Positions 11,385-64,000 of a stretch of 64,000 nt of DNA are shown here, one piece after another (positions within the stretch are counted from its first letter, which is position 1; every line of letters starts with the position of its first letter). A program made the translations under genes and the position numbers. The stretch covers positions 2,017 through 66,016 of the forward strand of contig DATKSZ010000017.1 in assembly GCA_035531375.1 (NCBI GenBank), written 5' to 3'. Source of the DNA: Terriglobales bacterium (GTDB lineage: Bacteria > Acidobacteriota > Terriglobia > Terriglobales > SCQP01). The notes under the pieces were generated by a model. It had not been told where the DNA came from. It was given only the letters and a program-made list of their open reading frames with translations, and did no database searches.

Positions 11385-14300
11385 ATGCTGGCTGCTCGCT
11401 TTCGCGGTTCTGTCGGGCTCGTCCTGGCGTTGTTGGCAACCGGTGGCATGCTGCGGGCGCAGCGCGGCGGCCGTGGCGGCCGCGGCGCCGCCGCCGCCCC
11501 CATGCAGTTCCGCGCCCTGGGCCCGGTCGAGGGCGGCGGCCGCGTCTGCTGCGTGGTCGGCATCCCCGGCCAGCCCAACATCTATTACATCGGCGCCGCC
11601 GGCGGCGGCGTCTGGAAGACCACCAACGGCGGCTTTAGCTGGACCCCCATCTTCCAGCACCAGTCCACCGAATCCATCGGCGCCCTCGCCCTGGCCCCCT
11701 CCAACCCCAACCTGATCTGGGTGGGCACCGGCGAGGCCAACGTGCGCAACGATGTGATCGTCGGCCACGGCCTGTTCTTCTCCCCCGATGCCGGCGCCAC
11801 CTGGCGCGAGGTCGGCGCCGCCGAGTTCCACCAGGCCGGCCAGATCGCCAAGATCGTGATCAACCCGAGCAACGCCAACGAGGTCTGGGTGGCGGTGCTG
11901 GGCCACGCCTTCGGCCCCAATCCCGAGCGCGGTGTCTTCCACACCACCGACGGCGGCGCCACCTGGCAGAAGACCCTGTTCGTCAACGACACCACCGGTG
12001 CCATTGACCTCGCCATGCAGCCCGGCAATCCCCGCGTGCTGGTGGCCGCCCTGTGGCAGACCATGCGCCATCCCTGGGGCCTGGAAGATGGCGGCCCCGG
12101 CAGCGGCCTCTACAAGTCCGTGGACGCCGGCCTGACCTGGCACAAGCTCACCCGCGGCCTGCCCGCCGGCCCTTACGGCCGCATCGCGGTCGAGTTCGCC
12201 CCCAGCGCCCCCGAGCGCCTCTACGCCGAGATCCAGGCCAAGCACGGCGTCTTCTGGCGTTCCGACGACGCCGGCGACTCCTGGAGCATGGTCAGCAACA
12301 ACTACCAAATCAACTCCCGCCCCTTCTATTTCAGCCGCTTCGAGGTTGTGCCCAACGACCCCGACAAGATCTTCTTCCTCTCGGTGCGCATGTCCTACTC
12401 CGCCGATGGCGGCAAGACCTCTGCGCCCGCCGGCATCACCCTGCACGCCGACCATCACTCCCTGTGGATGGACCCCACCAACCCCAGCCGCATCGTCGAG
12501 GGCGACGACGGCGGCGTCAACTTCTCCCGCGACGGCGGCCTGCACTGGATCCACACCGCCAACCTGGCGCTGGAAGAGGGCTACTCCATCCATATTGACA
12601 ACGACACCCCCTACCATATCTGCGAAGGCCTGCAGGACAATGGCGGCTGGTGCGGCCCCTCCCAGGCCGCCGCCCGCCCCAACGACTGGCGCATGGTGGT
12701 GGGCGGGGACGGCGAATACGTCGTGCCCGCCCCCAGCGACGCCAACATCCTCTATGCCGACTCGCAAGAGGGCGATATCCAGCGCACCAACTTCGCCACC
12801 GGCACCCAGGTCAACGTCAAGCCCCTCAACACCGGCACTTCGGGCGAGAGCGCGTTCGTCTACAACATGCCCGCCCGCTTCAACTGGACCACCCCCATCG
12901 AAGTGGACGCCCATGATCCCAACACCCTTTACCTGGGCGCCAACAAGCTGTTCAAGAGCACCAACGGCGGCCACGACTGGACCGCCATCAGCCCCGACCT
13001 CACCCGCAACGACAAGAGCAAGCAGCAGCCCTCGGGCGGCGTGGTGGATCTCGATATGACCGGCGCCGAGACCGCCGACACCATCCTCTCGGTCGGCCTC
13101 TCCCGCCTCGACCCCAACACCATCTGGGTCGGCACCGACGACGGCTACGTCCAAGTCACCCACGACGGCGGCAAGAGCTGGACCAACGTCAGCGACAACA
13201 TTCCCAACTTGCCGCCCTGGGGACGGCTGCAGCAGGTCGGGGTCTCGCCCTTCGACCCCAACACCTGCTACATCGCCTACGACCTGCACGAGATGGACAA
13301 CAACCAGCTCTTCGTCTTCAAGACCCACGACGGCGGCAAGAGCTGGACCTCGATCGCCGCCGGGCTGCCGCCCGACTACTCCGCCCGCGTGGTGCGCGAA
13401 GACCCCAACCGCAAGGGCTTCCTGGTGCTGGGCACCGACTACGGCGTCTACCGCTCGGCCGATGACGGCGCCACCTGGACGCCGATCCACAATGGCTTTC
13501 CCGTGGCCGCCATCTACGACCTCAAGTTCGTCAAGGCCAGCCACGACCTGATTGTCGGCACCCACGGCCGCGGCATCTACGTGATGAACGACATCACCCC
13601 CTGGGAGCAGTTGGCCCAGCCGGCGGTGGCGTCGGCGCCCTTCACCCTGTTCCCCATCCTCGACGCCTACCGCTACCAGCGCGGCGGGGGCGGGGGCGGC
13701 GGCCTCAACCAGGATCCGTTCGCGGTGCGCGTGGCCCAGCCGCCGCAGGGCGCGGTGATCCAGTACAATCTGCAGGCCGCAGTCCGCTCCACCCGCCCCG
13801 AGAAACCCGCGCCGGCGCTGACGCCGGAGGAGCAGCAGATGGCGGCCATGGCCGCGCAGTTCGGCTTCACCCTGCCCAGCGCCAGCCGCGGCCCCATCAA
13901 CATTGACGTCACCGACGCCCAGGGCCGCCACATCGCCACCGTGCACGGCAGCGGCCGCGCCGGCCTCAACCAGGCGGTGTGGGACGGCAACTACGATCCC
14001 TCGCCGGTGAAGGCCCCCGCCGGCGGCGGCCGCGGCGGCTTCTTCGCCCGCTTCGGCGGCGGCGGCCTGCGCGCCCTGCCCGGCCGCTACAAGGTCACCG
14101 TCAACGTCCCCGGCCTGCCCGCCCAAAGCCAGTGGGTCAGCCTTCACGACGATCCCCGGGTCAAGACCGACACGGCCGCCCTGCAAGCCACCCTCAAGGA
14201 TGGCCAGGCCATGCAGCCCGATGTGGATGCCATGAACCGCACCCTCAACGGCCTCAACAGCCTCGAGCAGCAGCTCACCGCGGTGCAGCACAGCCTGGCG

Positions 14301-14702
14301 ACGCTGCGCTCCGAGGGCGACTACGCCGCCCTGCTGCGCCAGGCCAACGCCCTGCGCCAGAAGGTGGTCACCCTGCAGCGGGTGTTCAACGACGCCCCCC
14401 GCCATGAGGACTACGGCGGCATCACCGCCTTCGCCGCCGAGTTCAACGGCATCTTCCGCCGCGTCAGCGGCGGCGTCAACGAGATGCCCCACGCCCAGGA
14501 CCTGCGCGATTGGGCCCAGGACCGGGCCAAGCTGCAGGGCTATCTCGCCCGCTACGACACCCTGCTCAAGACCGACGTCGTAGCCTACAACAAGCAAGCG
14601 CTGGCGCAAAAGGGCGTCACCCTGGTCGCCGGCGCGGCGGTGTCGCTGCCGGCCGCCCCGGCCGTGCTCGCCGCCGCGGCCGCGCCCGGCGCCAACCGCT
14701 AA
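11385..14702 (+). CDS. Sortilin/VPS10-like BNR (Asp-box) repeat protein, glycosyl-hydrolase-like, paralog 1
   Basis: Signal peptide MLAARFRGSVGLVLALLATGGMLRAQ. Many Asp-boxes are present (SPDAGATW, TTDGGATW, SVDAGLTW, SRDGGLHW, STNGGHDW, THDGGKSW x2, SADDGATW), followed by a helical C-terminal extension. The ORF track begins at 11355. The ATG at 11385 follows GGAGA. Confidence 0.8.
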   Translation: MLAARFRGSVGLVLALLATGGMLRAQRGGRGGRGAAAAPMQFRALGPVEGGGRVCCVVGIPGQPNIYYIGAAGGGVWKTTNGGFSWTPIFQHQSTESIGALALAPSNPNLIWVGTGEANVRNDVIVGHGLFFSPDAGATWREVGAAEFHQAGQIAKIVINPSNANEVWVAVLGHAFGPNPERGVFHTTDGGATWQKTLFVNDTTGAIDLAMQPGNPRVLVAALWQTMRHPWGLEDGGPGSGLYKSVDAGLTWHKLTRGLPAGPYGRIAVEFAPSAPERLYAEIQAKHGVFWRSDDAGDSWSMVSNNYQINSRPFYFSRFEVVPNDPDKIFFLSVRMSYSADGGKTSAPAGITLHADHHSLWMDPTNPSRIVEGDDGGVNFSRDGGLHWIHTANLALEEGYSIHIDNDTPYHICEGLQDNGGWCGPSQAAARPNDWRMVVGGDGEYVVPAPSDANILYADSQEGDIQRTNFATGTQVNVKPLNTGTSGESAFVYNMPARFNWTTPIEVDAHDPNTLYLGANKLFKSTNGGHDWTAISPDLTRNDKSKQQPSGGVVDLDMTGAETADTILSVGLSRLDPNTIWVGTDDGYVQVTHDGGKSWTNVSDNIPNLPPWGRLQQVGVSPFDPNTCYIAYDLHEMDNNQLFVFKTHDGGKSWTSIAAGLPPDYSARVVREDPNRKGFLVLGTDYGVYRSADDGATWTPIHNGFPVAAIYDLKFVKASHDLIVGTHGRGIYVMNDITPWEQLAQPAVASAPFTLFPILDAYRYQRGGGGGGGLNQDPFAVRVAQPPQGAVIQYNLQAAVRSTRPEKPAPALTPEEQQMAAMAAQFGFTLPSASRGPINIDVTDAQGRHIATVHGSGRAGLNQAVWDGNYDPSPVKAPAGGGRGGFFARFGGGGLRALPGRYKVTVNVPGLPAQSQWVSLHDDPRVKTDTAALQATLKDGQAMQPDVDAMNRTLNGLNSLEQQLTAVQHSLATLRSEGDYAALLRQANALRQKVVTLQRVFNDAPRHEDYGGITAFAAEFNGIFRRVSGGVNEMPHAQDLRDWAQDRAKLQGYLARYDTLLKTDVVAYNKQALAQKGVTLVAGAAVSLPAAPAVLAAAAAPGANR

Positions 14703-14737
14703 CGCCCATTTCCTTCGCTACGGTAAAAGGAGACTTC

Positions 14738-17700
14738 ATGAGGATCGTCAAGTTTTCGCTGAGTTCATTGGCCGTGCTGCTGCTCGCGCTGGCCGCGAGT
14801 GTCGCGCCCGCGGTGGCCCAGGGCCGCGGCCGCGGCGGCGTCAACCCCAACGCCGCCCCGCTGCAGTTCCGCAACCTCGGCCCCGCCCAGGGCGGCGGCC
14901 GCGTCACCAGTGTGGTGGGCATACCCGGCAATCCCAATATCTATTACGCCGGCGCCGCTGCCGGCGGCGTGTGGAAAACCACGGATGCCGGCAACACCTG
15001 GCACCCCATCTTCCAAAAGGAGCCCGTCGCCTCCATCGGCGACATCGCCCTGGCGCCCTCCAACCCCAACCTGGTTTGGGTCGCCACCGGCGAGGCCAAC
15101 ATTCGCAACGACGTTATGGTGGGCCACGGCCTCTACTTCTCCCCCGACGCCGGCGCCACTTGGCAGGAGATCGCCCCGCAAATCTTCCACAACGCCGGCC
15201 AGATGTCGCGCGTGGTGATCAATCCCCAAGACCCCAACGAGGTCTGGGTGGCGGTGTTCGGCCACGCCTGGGGCCCCAACCCCGAGCGCGGCATCTTCCA
15301 CACCACCGACGGCGGCAAGACCTGGCAGAAGACCCTCTTCGTCAACGACCACACCGGCGCCATTGACCTGGCCATCAAGCCCGACAACCCCCGCATCCTG
15401 CTCGCCGGCATGTGGGACATGGTGCGCCACCCCTGGGGCATGGACAACGGCGGCCCCGGCTCCGGCCTCTACCGTTCCATTGACGGCGGCCAGACCTGGA
15501 CCAAGATCACCGCCGGCCTCGCCAAGGGCCCCTACGGCCGCATCGGCCTCGCCTTCGCCCCCAGCCAGCCCGACCTTGCCTACGCCATCGTGCAGTCCAA
15601 GACCGGACTCTTTTACCGCTCCGAGGACGCCGGCGTGCACTGGACCGCGGTCAGCGACAGCGATGCCCTCGACGCCCGCCCCTTCTACTTCAGCCGCTTC
15701 AACGTGGACCCAGACAACCCGGACAAGATCTTCTTCCTGGCGCTGGGCATCAACGTCTCCATGGACGGCGGCAAGACCGTAAGCCCCGCCGGCCGCGTCC
15801 ACTCCGACAACCACACCATGTGGATTGATCCCAAGAACCCCAACCGCATCATCGAGGGCAACGACGGCGGCGTGGTGCTCTCCTACGACGGCGGCAAGAG
15901 CTTCCGCTTCCTCGACACCATTCCCATCGAGGAGTTCTATATGGTCTCGGCCAGCAACGAGCCCGCCTACAACCTCTGCGGCGGCCTGCAGGACAACTCC
16001 GTCTGGTGCGGCCCCTCCTCGCCCAACAGCTCCATGAACTGGAGCGCGGTGGTGGGCGGCGACGGCGAGTACGGCGTCTTCGCCCCCAGCGATCCCCACG
16101 TCATCTACGGCGAGTCGCAGAACGCCTATGCCGAGCGCCTCGACACCCGCACCGGCATCTCCCGCGATGTCATGCCCTATGCCCTGGGCGTCTCCGACCT
16201 GGTGCCCAGCGCGCTCAAGTACCGCTTCAACTGGACCACCCCCATGGAGGTCGGCGCCGACAGCGCCAACGACGTCTACATCGGCGGCAACGTCCTGCTG
16301 CACTCCACCGATGGCGGCTTCCGTTGGACCCCGATCAGCCCCGATCTCACCCGCAACGACAAGTCCAAGCAGGTCAATAGCGGCGGCGTGATCGTCAACG
16401 ACATCACCGGCGCCGAGACCTACGACACCATCCTCTCCATCGCCCTCTCGCGCCTCGATCCCAAGACCATCTGGGTCGGCACCGACGACGGCCTGGTGCA
16501 GGTCACCCGCGACGGCGGCAAAACCTGGTCCCGCGTCAGCGACAACATCCCCGGCCTGCCCGCCTGGGGCCGGGTGCAGCAGATCGAGGTCTCGCCCTTC
16601 GATCCCGCCACCGCCTACGTCGCCTTCGACTTCCACGAGACCGACAACAACCAGCCCTACGTCTACAAGACCAGCGACGGCGGCAAGACCTGGACCTCGA
16701 TCGCGGCCGGCCTGCCCGCCGACGCCTCCGCCCGCGTGGTGCGCGAGGACCCCAACCACAAGGGCTTCCTGGTGTGCGGCACCGACACCGGCCTGTTCAC
16801 CTCCTCCGACGACGGCGCCACCTGGCAGCCGCTCAAGCGCGGCTTCCCCACCGTGCCCGTCTTTGACGTCCAGTTCGTCAAGGCCAGCCACGACCTGCTG
16901 GTCGCCACCCACGGCCGCGGCCTGTTTGCGCTCAACAACATCGTGCCCCTGGAGCAGACCAACGCCCAAGTGGTCAGCGCTCCCCTCACCGTCTTCCCCG
17001 TGCTCACCGACTACGAGCTGCGCGGCGGCAAGCTGGGCGGCCGGGGCTTCTTCGGCTTCGGCGGACCCGCCGGCGCCTCCATCTACTACCATCTCCAGAC
17101 CGCCCTCAAGGGCGGGCGCGGTCCCGGCGGTGGTCCGGTCAAGATCGCCATCACCGACGCCCAGGGGCATCTGGTCACCACCCTGCACGGCACCGGCCGC
17201 GCCGGCCTCAACCAGGTCGTCTGGCGCGGCAACTACGACGGCCCCGTCACCCCCAACCTCGGTCCGGCCGCCCGCCGCGGCGGCGGCTTCGGCTTCTTCC
17301 GCCCCCAGGCCGCGCCCGGCCAAGCGGCCCCCGATGCCGGCCCCCGCGCCCTCTACGGTGTCTACAAGGCCACCGTCACCATCCCCGGGCAGCCGCCGCA
17401 GTCCCAAATGGTCCGCCTGGCGCCCGATCCGCGTTGGGCCCGTGCCGCCGACGCCAATGCCAACGATGCCGCCACCCTCAAGGCCGCCCTGCAGGCGCGC
17501 GATGAGGTCTCGGCCATGAACCAGATGCTCACCCGCCTCAACAACCTCAAAACCCAGCTCCAGGCCGAGCAGGCCAGCCTGCGCACCCTGCAGTCGAGCG
17601 GCGGCGACTATGCCGACGTCGAGAAGCAGGCCGGCGCCTTGCTGAAGAAGGTCTCCACCCTGGAGTTCGGCATCTACAACCCCGACCAGGGCAAGGGCGA

Positions 17701-18775: not shown

Positions 18776-18839
18776 GCCACTTTCTGGCCACGGGGGCACA
18801 GCCAATCTTGGCTGTGCGAACCCAGCCCTTCTGGCCACT
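18776..18839 (+). repeat. R2 REP-like palindromic unit (singleton), abutting R1 copy A
   Basis: GCCACTTTCTGGCCACGGGGGCACAGCCAATCTTGGCTGTGCGAACCCAGCCCTTCTGGCCACT. The core hairpin CACAGCCAA-TC-TTGGCTGTG is the same unit as in the 45967..46433 array. Confidence 0.8.
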
Positions 18840-45876: not shown

Positions 45877-45966
45877 GGGTTCGCTCCAGTGGCGAGTCTA
45901 GGGGGCGGCTCCGGGCTTGTCAACGCCCCCCTCCCGGCTGCCGAGCCCCCGCTGGCCGTTGCCTCC

Positions 45967-46433
45967 GCCACTTTCCGGCCACGGTGGCTCAGAACCCAGC
46001 CACGGTGGCACAGCCAGTCTTGGCAGTGCAAACCCAGCCCTACTGGCCACAGTGGCACAGCCAATCTTGGCTGTGCAAACCCAGCGCACAGCCAGTCTTG
46101 GCAGTGCGAGCCCAGCCCTACCGGCCACGGTGGCACAGCCAATCTTGGCTGTGCAAACCCAGCGCACAGCCAGGCTTGGCAGTGCGAGCCCAGCCCTACC
46201 GGCCACGGTGGCACAGCCAATCTTGGCAGTGCAAACCCAGCGCACAGCCAGGCTTGGCAGTGCAAACCCAGCCCTACTGGCCACAGTGGCACAGCCAATC
46301 TTGGCAGTGCAAACCCAGCGCACAGCCAGTCTTGGCAGTGCGAGCCCAGCCCTACTGGCCACGGTGGCACAGCCAATCTTGGCTGTGCAAACCCAGCGCA
46401 CAGCCAGGCTTGGCAGTGCAAGCTCAGCCCTAC
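45967..46433 (+). repeat. Tandem array of R2 REP-like palindromic units, 78-bp period, about 6 periods
   Basis: GGCACAGCCAATCTTGG starts at 46054, 46132, 46210, 46288 and 46366 (exactly 78 bp apart). Each period is an A half (GGCACAGCCAATCTTGGCTGTGCAAACCCAGC) plus a B half (GCACAGCCAGTCTTGGCAGTGCGAGCCCAGCCCTACCGGCCACGGT). Confidence 0.9.
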
Positions 46434-46676
46434 CCCCCCCCCACCACGACGCCCCACCCTCTCGCGGCGACCTCCGAGTCGCCTCGGGCGAGGCGAGATC
46501 GAGACTCCCAGAAGCCAGGGTCCGGGGTGCCTACCCCCTCCCGCCTCCCGGGCCACCTCGACCCCCGGGCCCCCCGAGGAGGGGCGGCGCAATCCTCCAC
46601 TGGGCACTTTTTCCTAGGGATTGCGCTTGCGGAGGCGTAGTATCGCCAAAGCGTCCGGTCACGTTGGGGCGAAGCC

Positions 46677-48348: not shown

Positions 48349-51300
48349 ATGAAGCGTTTGTCCTTTGCCGCCATGTTGGCGATTGCAGTGAGCCTCTGCC
48401 TGCCCCTGGCAGCGCAGTACGGCCGCGGTCCCGCCGGCCCCCAGCACACCACCACCGTGCCGCCGCTGCAGTTCCACTACATGGGACCGGCCGCGGCCGG
48501 CCGCATCGCCTCGGCGGCGGGCGTGCCCGGACAGCCCAACGTCTACTACCTGGGCGCGGCCTCCGGCGGCTTGTGGAAATCCACCGACGGCGGCCACAGC
48601 TTCCGGCCCATCTTCGACCAGCAGGACGCCATGGCCATCGGCTCCATCGCCGTCGCCCCCTCCGATCCCTCCACCGTCTGGGTGGGCACAGGCGAGCCCT
48701 GGGTCATCCGCCCCGCCGACATCATCGGCGACGGTGTCTACAAGTCCACCGACGCCGGCGCCACCTGGCAACATATGGGCTTGGTGCGCACCGGCCGCAT
48801 CGCCCGCATCCTGGTCAACCCCAAGGACGTCAACAACGTCTTCGTTTGCGCCGAGGGCCGGGTGTCGGCCCCCCAGCAGAGCCGCGGCGTGTTCCGCACC
48901 ACCGACGGCGGCGCCACCTGGAAGCGCACCCTGTTCGTCAACCCCAACACCGGCTGCAGCGGCCTCAGCATGGACCCGGCCGACCCCAACACCCTCATCG
49001 CCGGCGCCTGGCAGGTGACCCAGCGCACTTGGCAGGAGGCCAGCGGCGGCCCCGGCAGCGGCGTCTTCATCTCCCACGACAACGGCCAGACCTGGACCCG
49101 CCTCGCCGCCGGCCTGCCCCACTCCCCCCTCGGCAAGATTGACGTCGCCATCGCCCCCTCCAACCCGCAGCGCATGTATGCCCTGATCCAGACCTACGAC
49201 CAGGGCTCGCTCTGGCGCTCCGACGACGGCGGCGCGCAGTGGCAGGTGGTGAGCTGGGACCGCTCCCTCATCGGCCGCGCCGGCTACTACATCCGCCTCG
49301 GCGTCAATCCCAAGAACGACAACGACGTGCTCATCACCAGCAGCAGCCCGCACTATTCCACCGACGGCGGCCGCCACTTCTCCGGCGACGGCGGCACCCT
49401 CAAGCCCATCGGCCCGGCCAGTTGCGGCGACTGCCACGACATCTGGATTGACCCCAACAACCCCGCCCGCTACGTGCTCACCGACGACGGCGGCGCCAGC
49501 ATCGCCACCGGCGCCGGCACCGCCCTCCACGTCTCCCTGCCCAACGGCCAGACCTACCACGTCTTCTCCGACAACCGCGTCCCCTACTGGATCTACAGCA
49601 ACCGCCAGGACGACGGCACCATGCGCATCATCAGCACCGTCTCCCAGCCCAGCGGCAACGGCCTGCTCCCGGCCAACGAGTTCATGCCCGAGGGCCGCGG
49701 CGGGCGCGGCGGCTTCTTCTTCGGCCGCGGCGGCCGCTTCCCCGTCAACCAGCAATTAGTGGCGCAACTGCCCAAGCCCGCCCCCGCTCCCGCCGGCCTG
49801 GCTTTTGGCCCCAACCACCTCCGCACCGCCCCCGCCGGCCGCGGCAACGGCTTCGGCGCTCCCCCCATGCCGACCGCCACCTACCAGGCCAACATCGGTG
49901 GCTGCGAGTCCGGCTTCACCGTGCCCGATCCCACCGACGCCAACGTCGTCTGGGCGACCTGCTACGGCGGCAAGCTCACCCGTTACGACGCCATCGAGGG
50001 CGAGGCCCACTCGGTCGAGCCCGAGCGCATCACCCTCGACTCCCCTCCCAACCAGGTCAAGTACCGCTGCCACTGGACCTCGCCCCTGGCCATTGATCCG
50101 TTCGACCACAACAACGTCTACTACGGCTGCCAGATGATTTTGAAGACCGACAACAAGGGCTTCTCCTGGAGCGAGTTCAGCCCCGACCTCTCCACCAAGG
50201 ACCCCGCCCGCGTGGTCCCCAACGGCGGCATCGAGGGCGACAACCTGGCGCAGTACGACGGCGAAGTGGTCTGGTCCATCGCCCCCTCGCCCATCCAGCG
50301 CGGCCTCATCTGGGCCGGCACCAACGACGGCAAGGTCTGGTACACCAAGGACGGCGAGTCCAAGACCCAGCCCCACTGGGTGGACGTCACCGCCAACCTC
50401 CACCTGCCCCCCTGGGGCGAGGTCAACCAGATCTCCCCCTCCAACTTCGATCCCGGCACCGCCTACATTGCCGTGGACTTCCGCATGGCCGGGCACGAGG
50501 ACCTCAAGCCCTACCTGCTCGAGACCACCGACTTCGGCGCCACCTGGAAGAGCGTCAACGGCGACATTCCCAGCTCCAACCCGCTCGACTACACCCTCAG
50601 CATCGCCGAGAACCCCAACCGCAAGGGCATGCTCTTCGCCGGCTCCGCCCATGCCTTTTACTACTCCATGGACAACGGCGGCCACTGGGTCCACTTCAAC
50701 CAGGGCCTGCCCCCCGCGCCCGTGAGCTGGATCAACGTCGAGAAGCGCTTCCACGACGTGGACGTCTCCACCTACGGCCGCGGCCTCTACATCCTGCCCG
50801 ACATCACCAGCCTGGAGCAGACCGGCTCGACCGCCGCCCCCGCGGCCACCCAGCTCTTCAAGCCCGCCGACGTCTTCCGCCAGGCCCGCGGTGTGTTCCC
50901 CACCGCCGCCCAGCCGGCGCGCCCGCAATTCCTCTTCCATCTCGCCGCCGCCCCCACCGGCCCGGTGCAGATGGAGATCCTCGACGCCCAGGGCAACGAG
51001 ATCCGCAAGCAGGAGCTCGACGCCCACGCCGGCCTCAACGGCGCCTATTGGGATCTGCTCTACGACGCCCCCACCCTGGTGCAGTTGCGCACCACGCCGC
51101 CGGAGAACCCCCACATCTGGGAAGAGCCGCGCTTCCAGGGCAAGAGCATCCGCACCATCACCCACTGGGGCATCACCCCCACCACCGGCATCCCGCTGGC
51201 GGCGCCGGGCAGCTACCAGGTCCGCCTGACCATCGACGGCAAGTCCTACACCCAGCCCTTCCAGGTGCTCAAGGACCCCGCCGTCCTGGCCTCCAGCGCC

Positions 51301-62387: not shown

Positions 62388-62426
62388 CCCCCGCCCCCGC
62401 GCCGCGCGCGCCTGCCCCTCCCCGCT

Positions 62427-62699
62427 CGCGGGGGTCGCGCCGCTTTGCCTGCCGGCAAAATCGGCGCGAAAGGCTGCGAAATTCCGCAGGGGCAGACGCG
62501 CCAGTGGCGCGTCTGCGCCCCCGGGAAACGAATTCGGCGCGGCCCCAGCGAGGCGCAGCGCCGACTTGGGGCCAGGGGGCCCCCAAGTCGGCGCGAGCAC
62601 AAGCGGGACGCGCGCCGCAGGCGCGCTGGGGCCCGCGCCAACCACTGTTTCACCGGGCCGGCGCGCTAGCGGCACGCGCGCGGGAGCCCGCGCCCACCA
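62427..62699 (+). repeat. R1 element, copy G (long-hairpin variant with a duplicated 3' terminus)
   Basis: A first terminus-like GGGGCCCGCGCCAACCA lies at about 62629..62645. A 54-bp insert follows, then the second terminus GGGAGCCCGCGCCCACCA ending at 62699. Confidence 0.85.
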
Positions 62700-63080: not shown

Positions 63081-63208
63081 GCGAACTTGCCTCCGATAAC
63101 GTTCGGTAAATTTCGCACATTTGAAAAGGCCTGGGCTGGTCTGGTACAAAAAGCGCTGGCGCCCCTGGCAGGGGGCGCCAGCCAAACCGACCAGAACAGG
63201 AGACCAGC

Positions 63209-63736
63209 ATGGCGCAAGATCAAGAGCCGGTCAAGGCCGGGGGTGTGATTCAGATTGACGAGCGGCCAATCCGGGGCCACGTGGACCAAGTGGTGCGGGC
63301 GACGGTGGAGGAGACGTTGAACCAGCTTTTCGCGGGGGCCGCGCCGCTTTGCCTGCTGGCAAAATCGGCGTGAAAGGCTGCGAAATTCCGCAGGGGCAGG
63401 CGCGCCAGTGACGCGTCTGCGCCCCCGGGAAGCGAATTCGGCGCAGCCCCAGCGAGGCGCGAGCATGCCGCCCCGCGCTGTTACAGCGGGGCGGCTCACA
63501 AGCGGGACGCACGCCGCAGGCGCGCTGGTGCCCGCGCCCACCAAAAGATCGAGGCCTGGCGCAACCGGCCGATCGAGAACGAGCACCCCTACGTGTACCT
63601 GGACGGGATCTGGCTGAAGCGGAGCTGGGGCGGCGAGGTCAAGAACGTCGCCGTACTGGTGGCGATCGGGGTGAACCAGGAGCGCGGCCTGCGCGGCGTG
63701 AAGCTGTTCGTCTCCGATCGGTGTTTAGGCCTGGTC
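63209..63736 (+). pseudogene. IS256-family transposase remnant (N-terminal ~40 codons plus a central fragment), split by R1 copy H and truncated at the 3' side
   Basis: MAQDQEPVKAGGVIQIDERPIRGHVDQVVRATVEETLNQL (63209..63328) and KIEAWRNRPIENEHPYVYLDGIWLKRSWGGEVKNVAVLVAIGVNQE/RGLRGVKLFVSDRCLGLV (63545..63736) match the conserved IS256 transposase layout. Large internal parts are missing. Confidence 0.65.
63331..63543 (+). repeat. R1 element, copy H (inside the IS256-like remnant)
   Basis: Begins CGCGGGGGCCGCGCCGCTTTGCCTGCTGGCAAAATCGGCG and ends GCGCTGGTGCCCGCGCCCACCA. It carries the same GCATGCCGCCCCGCG...ACAGCGGGGCGGCTC module as copy E. Confidence 0.9.
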
Positions 63737-63786
63737 TCCCGCCCCACGATTTTCTTGGACAATGAATTGGGAAAGGGAGCGAGAAC

Positions 63787-64000
63787 ATGCCCAAGGAAGA
63801 AAAGGTTTCATCGGGCGCCGCGGAGGGAGCCCGGAGGGCGACCGGAGCGGCGCCCGATGAAGGAGGAGGCCGCCCCCGTGGGCGCTGGTCCTCGAAACGC
63901 AAAATGGCGGTGATCACCGAGTTGATCCGAGGTGCGGACCTGGAGCAGCTCAGCCGGCGTCATGGCATCACCGCCGCCACCATCAGCGATTGGCGCGACG
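63787..64000 (+). mobile_element. IS3-family-like transposase OrfA (HTH), 5' part; continues past the right edge
   Basis: The ATG follows GGGAG by 7 nt. My translation is MPKEEKVSSGAAEGARRATGAAPDEGGGRPRGRWSSKRKMAVITELIRGADLEQLSRRHGITAATISDWRD, the typical RRWS..K...V.E.L.G.....L.R..GI....I..WR pattern. Absent from the ORF track because it is open-ended. Confidence 0.55.

Follow-up and report, generated by a model that had tools for sequence, protein, structure and literature searches.

The REP/BIME and REPIN-RAYT systems of Enterobacteria and Pseudomonas are built of gene-less, hairpin-forming repeats, which occur in high copy number, mostly in extragenic positions, and in mosaic or tandem arrangements (PMC5581495, PMC3116915). 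R1, the repeat family described here, resembles them in all these respects. REPIN-RAYT systems are defined by the vertical co-inheritance of the RAYT and its repeat (PMC5581495), whereas co-inheritance of RAYT with R1 is not seen among the MAGs of the genus studied here. The likeness to these systems further includes the lack of target duplication and, possibly, a single-copy RAYT-type Y1 gene with a copy of the repeat beside it. The architecture is different: REP and BIME are palindromes of 20–40 nt or inverted doublets, while an R1 unit measures about 175–340 nt and comprises 4–6 different hairpins, and the 215-nt copy on which this work is centred, R1-H, is neither a short palindrome nor an inverted doublet. 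In addition, R1 copies are co-oriented or arranged in direct tandem and are strand-polar, unlike the inverted doublets of REP.

A second term of comparison is provided by the IS200/IS605 elements, of which IS608 and ISDra2 are said, after the work of Ton-Hoang and colleagues in 2010, to move as single strands by 'peel and paste'. These elements and their miniature derivatives share with R1 the absence of target duplication, the presence of subterminal hairpins, asymmetric ends, a sequence preference confined to the 5' flank, and, apparently, an orientation tied to one chromosome strand. Their target, however, spans 4–5 nt, while R1 shows one strongly conserved flank base (C at −4). With 33.6 bits against a cut-off of 55, the only Y1 protein of the host genome, encoded on contig C141, falls short of the IS200 family. 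Adjacent deletions are classical for IS1, IS903 and Tn elements, where they are made by DDE transposases. As in the case of R1-H, the element remains intact, one junction is unchanged and the loss starts exactly at the element end; unlike those elements, R1 carries no gene, and the chemistry that we ascribe to it is an inferred one. Finally, the BOX elements of Streptococcus and the Rickettsia palindromic elements are modular hairpin repeats that can land inside genes, as R1 does. In contrast to these, R1-H brings a stop codon into the host frame and is not a tolerated in-frame insert.

The window analysed here is a stretch of 64,000 nt, corresponding to positions 2017–66016 of contig C17 of genome G000, and the contig ends 14 nt past the window end. 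The host genome, that of a soil acidobacterium, is a 3.45-Mb MAG of 165 contigs, with 70% G+C and a reported contamination of 3%. An R1 profile was built from the eight copies found in the window by profile search and alignment, namely R1-H (63330–63544, + strand), R1-G, which lies between convergent genes (62422–62643, + strand), and six further copies starting at about 18835, 23879, 32023, 57382, 58808 and 59943. Across the MAG this profile returned 392 matches in 346 blocks, 162 of which are full length. The unit is gene-less and mosaic, and hairpin modules are gained or lost at stem bases, as can be seen by comparing copy E with copy H. A second hairpin repeat, with core GGCACAGCCAATCTTGGCTGTGC, is also present in the window, as a tandem array with a 78-nt period at 45930–46512 and as single copies at 18784, 40652 and 53899. 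At 11456–17240 and 48417–51065 the window also holds three genes, paralogs of each other, in which BNR/Asp-box-like repeats (SxDxGxTW-type motifs) abound; their DNA identity is 60–80%.

R1-H is embedded in a decayed IS256-family element that occupies window positions 63095–63736. The left end of this element, consisting of the terminal repeat (beginning with GATAACGT...) and the 5' untranslated region, extends over 63095–63208 on the + strand. Its start is approximate and was set by sequence comparison: from about 63095 onwards the sequence is common to an intact copy in genome G017 (L005, from about 1380) and to copies on contigs C109 and C85, and upstream of this point the sequence is unrelated. 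Elements of the IS256 family measure about 1.3–1.5 kb between their terminal inverted repeats. The intact relative, from a genome of the same family as the host, spans about 1.4 kb and encodes a transposase of 401 aa (L005:1480–2685).

Starting at ATG 63209, the + strand frame reads the first 40 residues of the transposase (MAQDQ...EETLNQL), ending at 63328 as an earlier note on this DNA had proposed; with the first base of codon 41, this fragment covers 63209–63329 according to the open reading frame list and the alignment, and it aligns with residues 1–43 of the relative. The frame then enters R1 and meets a stop codon at 63371–63373. The same frame is resumed at 63545, again in agreement with the earlier reading, and continues as KIEAWRNRPIENEHPYVYLDG...AIGVNQE-RGLRGVKLFVSDRCLGLV. 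Specifically, the fragment KIEAWRNRP...AIGVNQE (63545–63682, + strand) corresponds to residues 153–198 of the relative and the last fragment, RGLRGVKLFVSDRCLGLV (63683–63736, + strand), to residues 226–243, so that the similarity stops at a V codon at 63734–63736, where it had been placed at about 63736. The stretch 63545–63736 scores 41.1 bits against PF00872 (Transposase_mut; cut-off 21), with profile positions 148–192 falling in the 63545–63682 fragment, and the identity to the L005 transposase is 78% on both sides of R1. The PF00872 score and the alignment of the fragments to the 401-aa relative assign both flanks to one IS256-family transposase.

Between the first and the second fragment 109 residues (44–152 of the relative) are absent, against the roughly 100 estimated before. 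The second internal deletion, which had been noticed after AIGVNQE, was located by alignment to L005 between NQE and RGL (63680–63685, + strand, joint at 63682/63683) and accounts for 81 nt, that is 27 residues (199–225 of the relative); in L005 an AGGAG direct repeat flanks the 81-nt segment. The window copy lacks the right end of the element. No intact catalytic transposase is present in the window copy, in which residues 44–152, 199–225 and all those after 243 are absent and the frame stops inside R1, and this copy is a dead remnant.

Immediately downstream lies the left end of an IS3-like element (63735–64000, + strand), which runs off the window and the contig. Its left boundary, at about 63735–63737, was set against an 88%-identical paralog on contig C111. 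An orfA on the + strand with ATG at 63787, preceded by AAGGGAG, bears out the part of the earlier note that had described an orfA with its own ribosome binding site. The partial orfA of the window scores 21.4 bits against PF01527 (HTH_Tnp_1), below the cut-off, and the full orfA of the C111 paralog scores 34.6 bits, above it; in the IS3 family orfA is followed by a frameshifted DDE orfB, and with orfB assembled in neither copy the label IS3-like would apply at the level of orfA. A hairpin repeat in a decayed IS256 copy with an IS3-like neighbour is, taken as a whole, ordinary nested mobile DNA.

The limits of R1-H were defined by an nhmmer search with the R1 profile, which matched C17:65345–65560 (window 63329/63330–63544) over model positions 1–221 with an E value of 4.6e-56. 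The start at 63331 given in the earlier note holds almost to the base, the T at 63330 being assignable to either R1 or the IS. Judging from this match, R1-H, which reads TCGCGGGGG...GCCCACCA followed by A, is a complete element and not a fragment. It has the same orientation as the seven other copies in the window, and its nearest copy, C51:4560–4774, is 93% identical and has the same module architecture. As single-stranded DNA it is predicted to fold into stacked hairpins (−75.7 kcal/mol, z = −3.1). In a search of a plasmid collection the transposase part alone found matches, R1 never.

To establish whether R1 belongs to the IS or interrupts it, the junction was compared with other copies of the element. 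On contig C43, a further copy of the window IS256 is preserved for its first 126 codons. In the 120 nt that precede R1 the two copies are 97.5% identical, and C43 reads ...CAGCTTTT-GGACGCGG... across the junction without R1. At the junction itself, C43 reads ...CAGCTTTT-GGACGCGGAAGCGG... and the window ...CAGCTTTT-CGCGGGGGCC.... The L005 relative likewise lacks R1 and has 327 nt of coding sequence in its place. As both copies, one from the same genome and one from a relative, are intact at the junction and read through it without R1, R1 is an insertion, and the possibility that it is part of the IS was rejected. With the T at 63329 counted as retained, the 215 nt of R1 replace 326 nt of the IS in the numbering of the relative. 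The left junction, CTTT|T, is seen directly and fits the flank rule of the family described below. The frame is kept across R1-H by chance only, given the stop codon that R1 places in it.

The IS256 element is represented in the assembly of the host genome by pieces at contig ends, with no intact copy among them, as is expected for an active multi-copy IS; it is not assembled across residues 127–348, and the right-hand junction was read from the relative, which is about 80% identical. A scan of genome contigs found no IS relative closer than this, and a C-terminal IS256 remnant on contig C16 holds no informative R1 junction. Since IS256 and R1 both break the assembly at many contig ends, it might be argued that the locus is an assembly chimera joining two multi-copy sequences in a MAG of 165 contigs. 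The sequence shared by IS256 and R1 amounts, however, to at most about 6 nt per junction, far under any assembler word size, R1-H is unique, with 93% identity to the nearest copy, and two false joins would also need to restore the order and the strand of the IS. On these sequence features we consider a chimera very unlikely, with only a slight chance of being correct.

The 162 full-length copies share precise ends. All of them (100%) begin with T. In the left flank, position −4 is occupied by C in 95% of the copies and position −3 in 59%, and −2 and −1 are variable; at the 3' end the element closes with ...GCCCACCA (...CCACCA), after which comes A or T. Neither these 162 copies nor the pairs of filled and empty sites have duplicated flanks. 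A DDE-type MITE was rejected as a description of R1, as its ends are not inverted repeats and no target-site duplication is present.

Several pairs of filled and empty sites could be aligned within the genome. The copy C81:4946–5121, compared with C149 (31001–31238), is a clean insertion of 175 nt with empty site ...CATT|GCCC...; it lies within an RHS/YD-repeat reading frame, which C149 keeps uninterrupted and in which the insertion causes a +1 shift in C81. A simple insertion is likewise seen at C10:8783–9001 in comparison with C56. The copy C51:4560–4774 lies inside a multi-copy element, here called X, within the stretch C51:4440–4800; X is recognisable by the motif GGGGAWWTTTCRACCGGCG and with empty site ...CGAA|A...; uninterrupted X is found near the starts of contigs C141 and C50, and related copies on C54, C120 and C131. 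In addition, the 3' half-module of R1 alone is present or absent between paralogs. These comparisons drew on contig stretches that are 85–90% identical to each other. Such stretches are carried by the contig pairs C10/C56, C36/C17, C81/C149, C155/C128 and C11/C44, and represent segmental duplications or, alternatively, a close relative binned together with the host. No orthologous empty sites were obtained by synteny with the genus, whose genes are only about 72–77% identical and differ in order. The empty sites show that C at −4 is already in place in IS256 (CTTT|), in C149 (CATT|) and in element X (CGAA|); as it precedes the insertion, it is a target preference and not a part of the element. 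In conclusion, R1 inserts as a discrete unit, does not duplicate its target and behaves as a non-autonomous mobile element, in line with the suggestion of the earlier note that it is mobile or recombinogenic. The family appears to be undescribed in public libraries.

The orientation of R1 is nearly uniform within each contig (8 + and 0 − on C17, 11 and 0 on C72, 0 and 13 on C120, 0 and 11 on C28). When scored by local GC skew, the locally C-rich strand holds 290 of the 375 matches (77%) in this fragmented MAG. The GC skew of this genome is itself unusually strong, with a genome-wide median absolute value of 0.11 per 10 kb; the window shows a very strong skew that changes little along its length, with values of about −0.1 in most 8-kb bins and extremes of −0.03 and −0.15. 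Gene strand, from crude gene calls, does not account for the skew. The gene contexts of R1 were derived from stop-to-stop gene calls, leaving out the overcounted class of copies inside open reading frames. Copies are mostly downstream of genes, enriched in convergent-gene gaps (53) and depleted in divergent-gene gaps (8), and in tandem-gene contexts they split 30 versus 30 by gene strand. The fact that R1 ignores gene strand argues for a DNA-level, replication-linked bias over a function as RNA.

The latter data also bear on the idea that R1 is a structured RNA gene or a regulatory site and that the IS256-like flanks are a chance similarity. The strong multi-hairpin predicted fold and the prevalence of copies downstream of genes would suit such a role. 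Chance similarity is contradicted by the 41 bits against PF00872 and by flanks that are both 78% identical to an intact transposase; moreover, orientation is independent of gene strand, filled and empty sites exist, and R1-H has no match in Rfam, whether the gathering threshold is applied or the limit is relaxed to E<=1. We regard this idea as having next to no chance of being right.

We then considered how 326 nt of the IS came to be missing at the insertion. The account that we judge likely as a whole is the following. A multi-copy IS256-family element would have landed at about 63095, R1-H would later have inserted into this copy, and end-processing by R1 itself would have made the 326-nt deletion; an unrelated 81-nt microhomology deletion and the IS3-like insertion would then have eroded the remnant further. 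The order of these events, the mechanism of the deletion and a single-strand HUH/Y1 (RAYT-like) chemistry are what we infer; the sequences themselves establish the insertion and its empty site, the sizes involved, the canonical ends and the flank rule. Both ends of R1-H are canonical, which points to R1 itself as the cause of the loss. Two routes can be envisaged: a one-ended intramolecular strand transfer, in which an R1 end is joined to a second nearby target and produces an adjacent deletion, or two nearby co-oriented R1 insertions followed by recombination between them. Microhomology-templated copying was rejected, as it would not give both canonical ends of R1-H, and regular R1 ends must therefore have been processed at the left and the right junction alike. 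The right joint in the relative, ...TACGGC|AAGATC, has C at −4 (CGGC), and the same base is found in 36 of the 49 IS relatives where the site could be located; on this comparison the deleted segment probably ended with CNNN.

A second IS256 remnant, at C85:19417–19800, offers a parallel. It comprises the left end and about 32 codons, and it breaks off precisely where a diverged R1-like element in reverse orientation (C85:19630–19718 and beyond) has its ACCAA end. On the IS this joint lies 26 nt away from the position of the window junction, and just before the C85 joint the intact IS reads CCAC| on the R1 strand. A methyltransferase-like gene follows this remnant. In both C85 and the window, the IS DNA immediately 3' of the R1 end is gone, which agrees with an adjacent deletion; the window fits two insertions followed by recombination equally well.

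The observations on the deletion endpoints have to be weighed against two explanations that separate the loss from R1. According to the first, R1 inserted normally, and the 326 nt were lost afterwards in an unrelated spontaneous deletion, caused by replication slippage with a stall at the terminal hairpin of R1, which by chance came to a halt at the end of the element. Events of a similar kind are documented by the 81-nt deletion between AGGAG repeats, which is independent of R1 and lies in the same remnant, and by the gain and loss of hairpin modules at stem bases in copies E and H. Neither is truncated coding sequence in excess at R1 3' ends genome-wide: coding-like sequence abuts 13.8% of the 3' ends and 9.3% of the 5' ends, a difference that is not significant, with no adjacent-deletion signal across the genome. 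This explanation is nevertheless unlikely in our view, as the deletion endpoint falls within 1–3 nt of the canonical element end, recurs at C85, and yields a joint, as deduced from the relative, that obeys the R1 flank rule. According to the second, the 326 nt were lost from the IS first and R1 then inserted exactly at the old junction. The fused sequence would have kept C at −4 (CTTT|) and would have been a legal target, but the insertion would have had to hit one exact nucleotide position in a remnant of about 1 kb, with no sign that this position was preferable to those around it, and we give it a slim chance. Each of the two explanations needs a coincidence to the nucleotide.

As a candidate for the enzyme that moves R1, the host genome encodes one Y1 transposase (PF01797; C141:210–740), which scores 89.2 bits against NF047646, the model for REP-associated tyrosine transposases, where the cut-off is 80. 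An R1 copy at C141:741–939 starts within about 20 nt of the end of this RAYT-type gene, and upstream of the gene lie the end of a multi-copy element X and then the contig start, all within C141:1–940. A copy of the second hairpin repeat (core GGCACAGCCAATCTTGGCTGTGC) also sits on C141, between the RAYT gene and its R1. The adjacency of RAYT and R1 carries little weight, because about one in ten downstream intergenic regions contains R1.

The distribution within the genus was evaluated on 15 congeners, all MAGs, and did not reveal co-inheritance of RAYT and repeat. PF01797 (Y1/RAYT) was found in only 2 of the 15 and missing in 13, while matches in the R1 range occur in at least 12 of the 15; G003, the richest congener checked, has at least 42 matches to R1-H and no Y1 match. 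R1 lies beside none of the relatives' Y1 loci, and a single-protein search with the C141 Y1 protein returned one congener match, with 43% identity. A single-strand HUH/Y1-type chemistry would be the most likely mechanism for R1, at roughly even odds, given that insertion leaves no duplication, that the hairpin ends are asymmetric, that the flank preference is confined to one side and that the copies are strand-polar. A different proposal, in which R1 is a strand-polar hairpin element without RAYT, moved by another enzyme or by a replication-fork process, and in which its ends delete neighbouring DNA by one-ended transfer, seems doubtful to us. Were this RAYT-free reading true, the R1 family would actively erode insertion sequences, two IS256 copies having been struck within 26 nt.

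In other respects, mobile elements are seen at this locus to nest in and erode each other in a familiar way. An R1 insertion in a datable multi-copy IS, of which the empty site survives, is the cleanest evidence to be had from sequence alone that the repeat family is mobile, and it shows that the family was active after the arrival of IS256. Taken together, the sequence comparisons make a good case for present or recent mobility of the R1 family. The locus also supplies testable rules for R1, namely exactly defined ends, insertion without duplication, a C at −4 and a single strand, and a hypothesis for how R1-like elements may make deletions.
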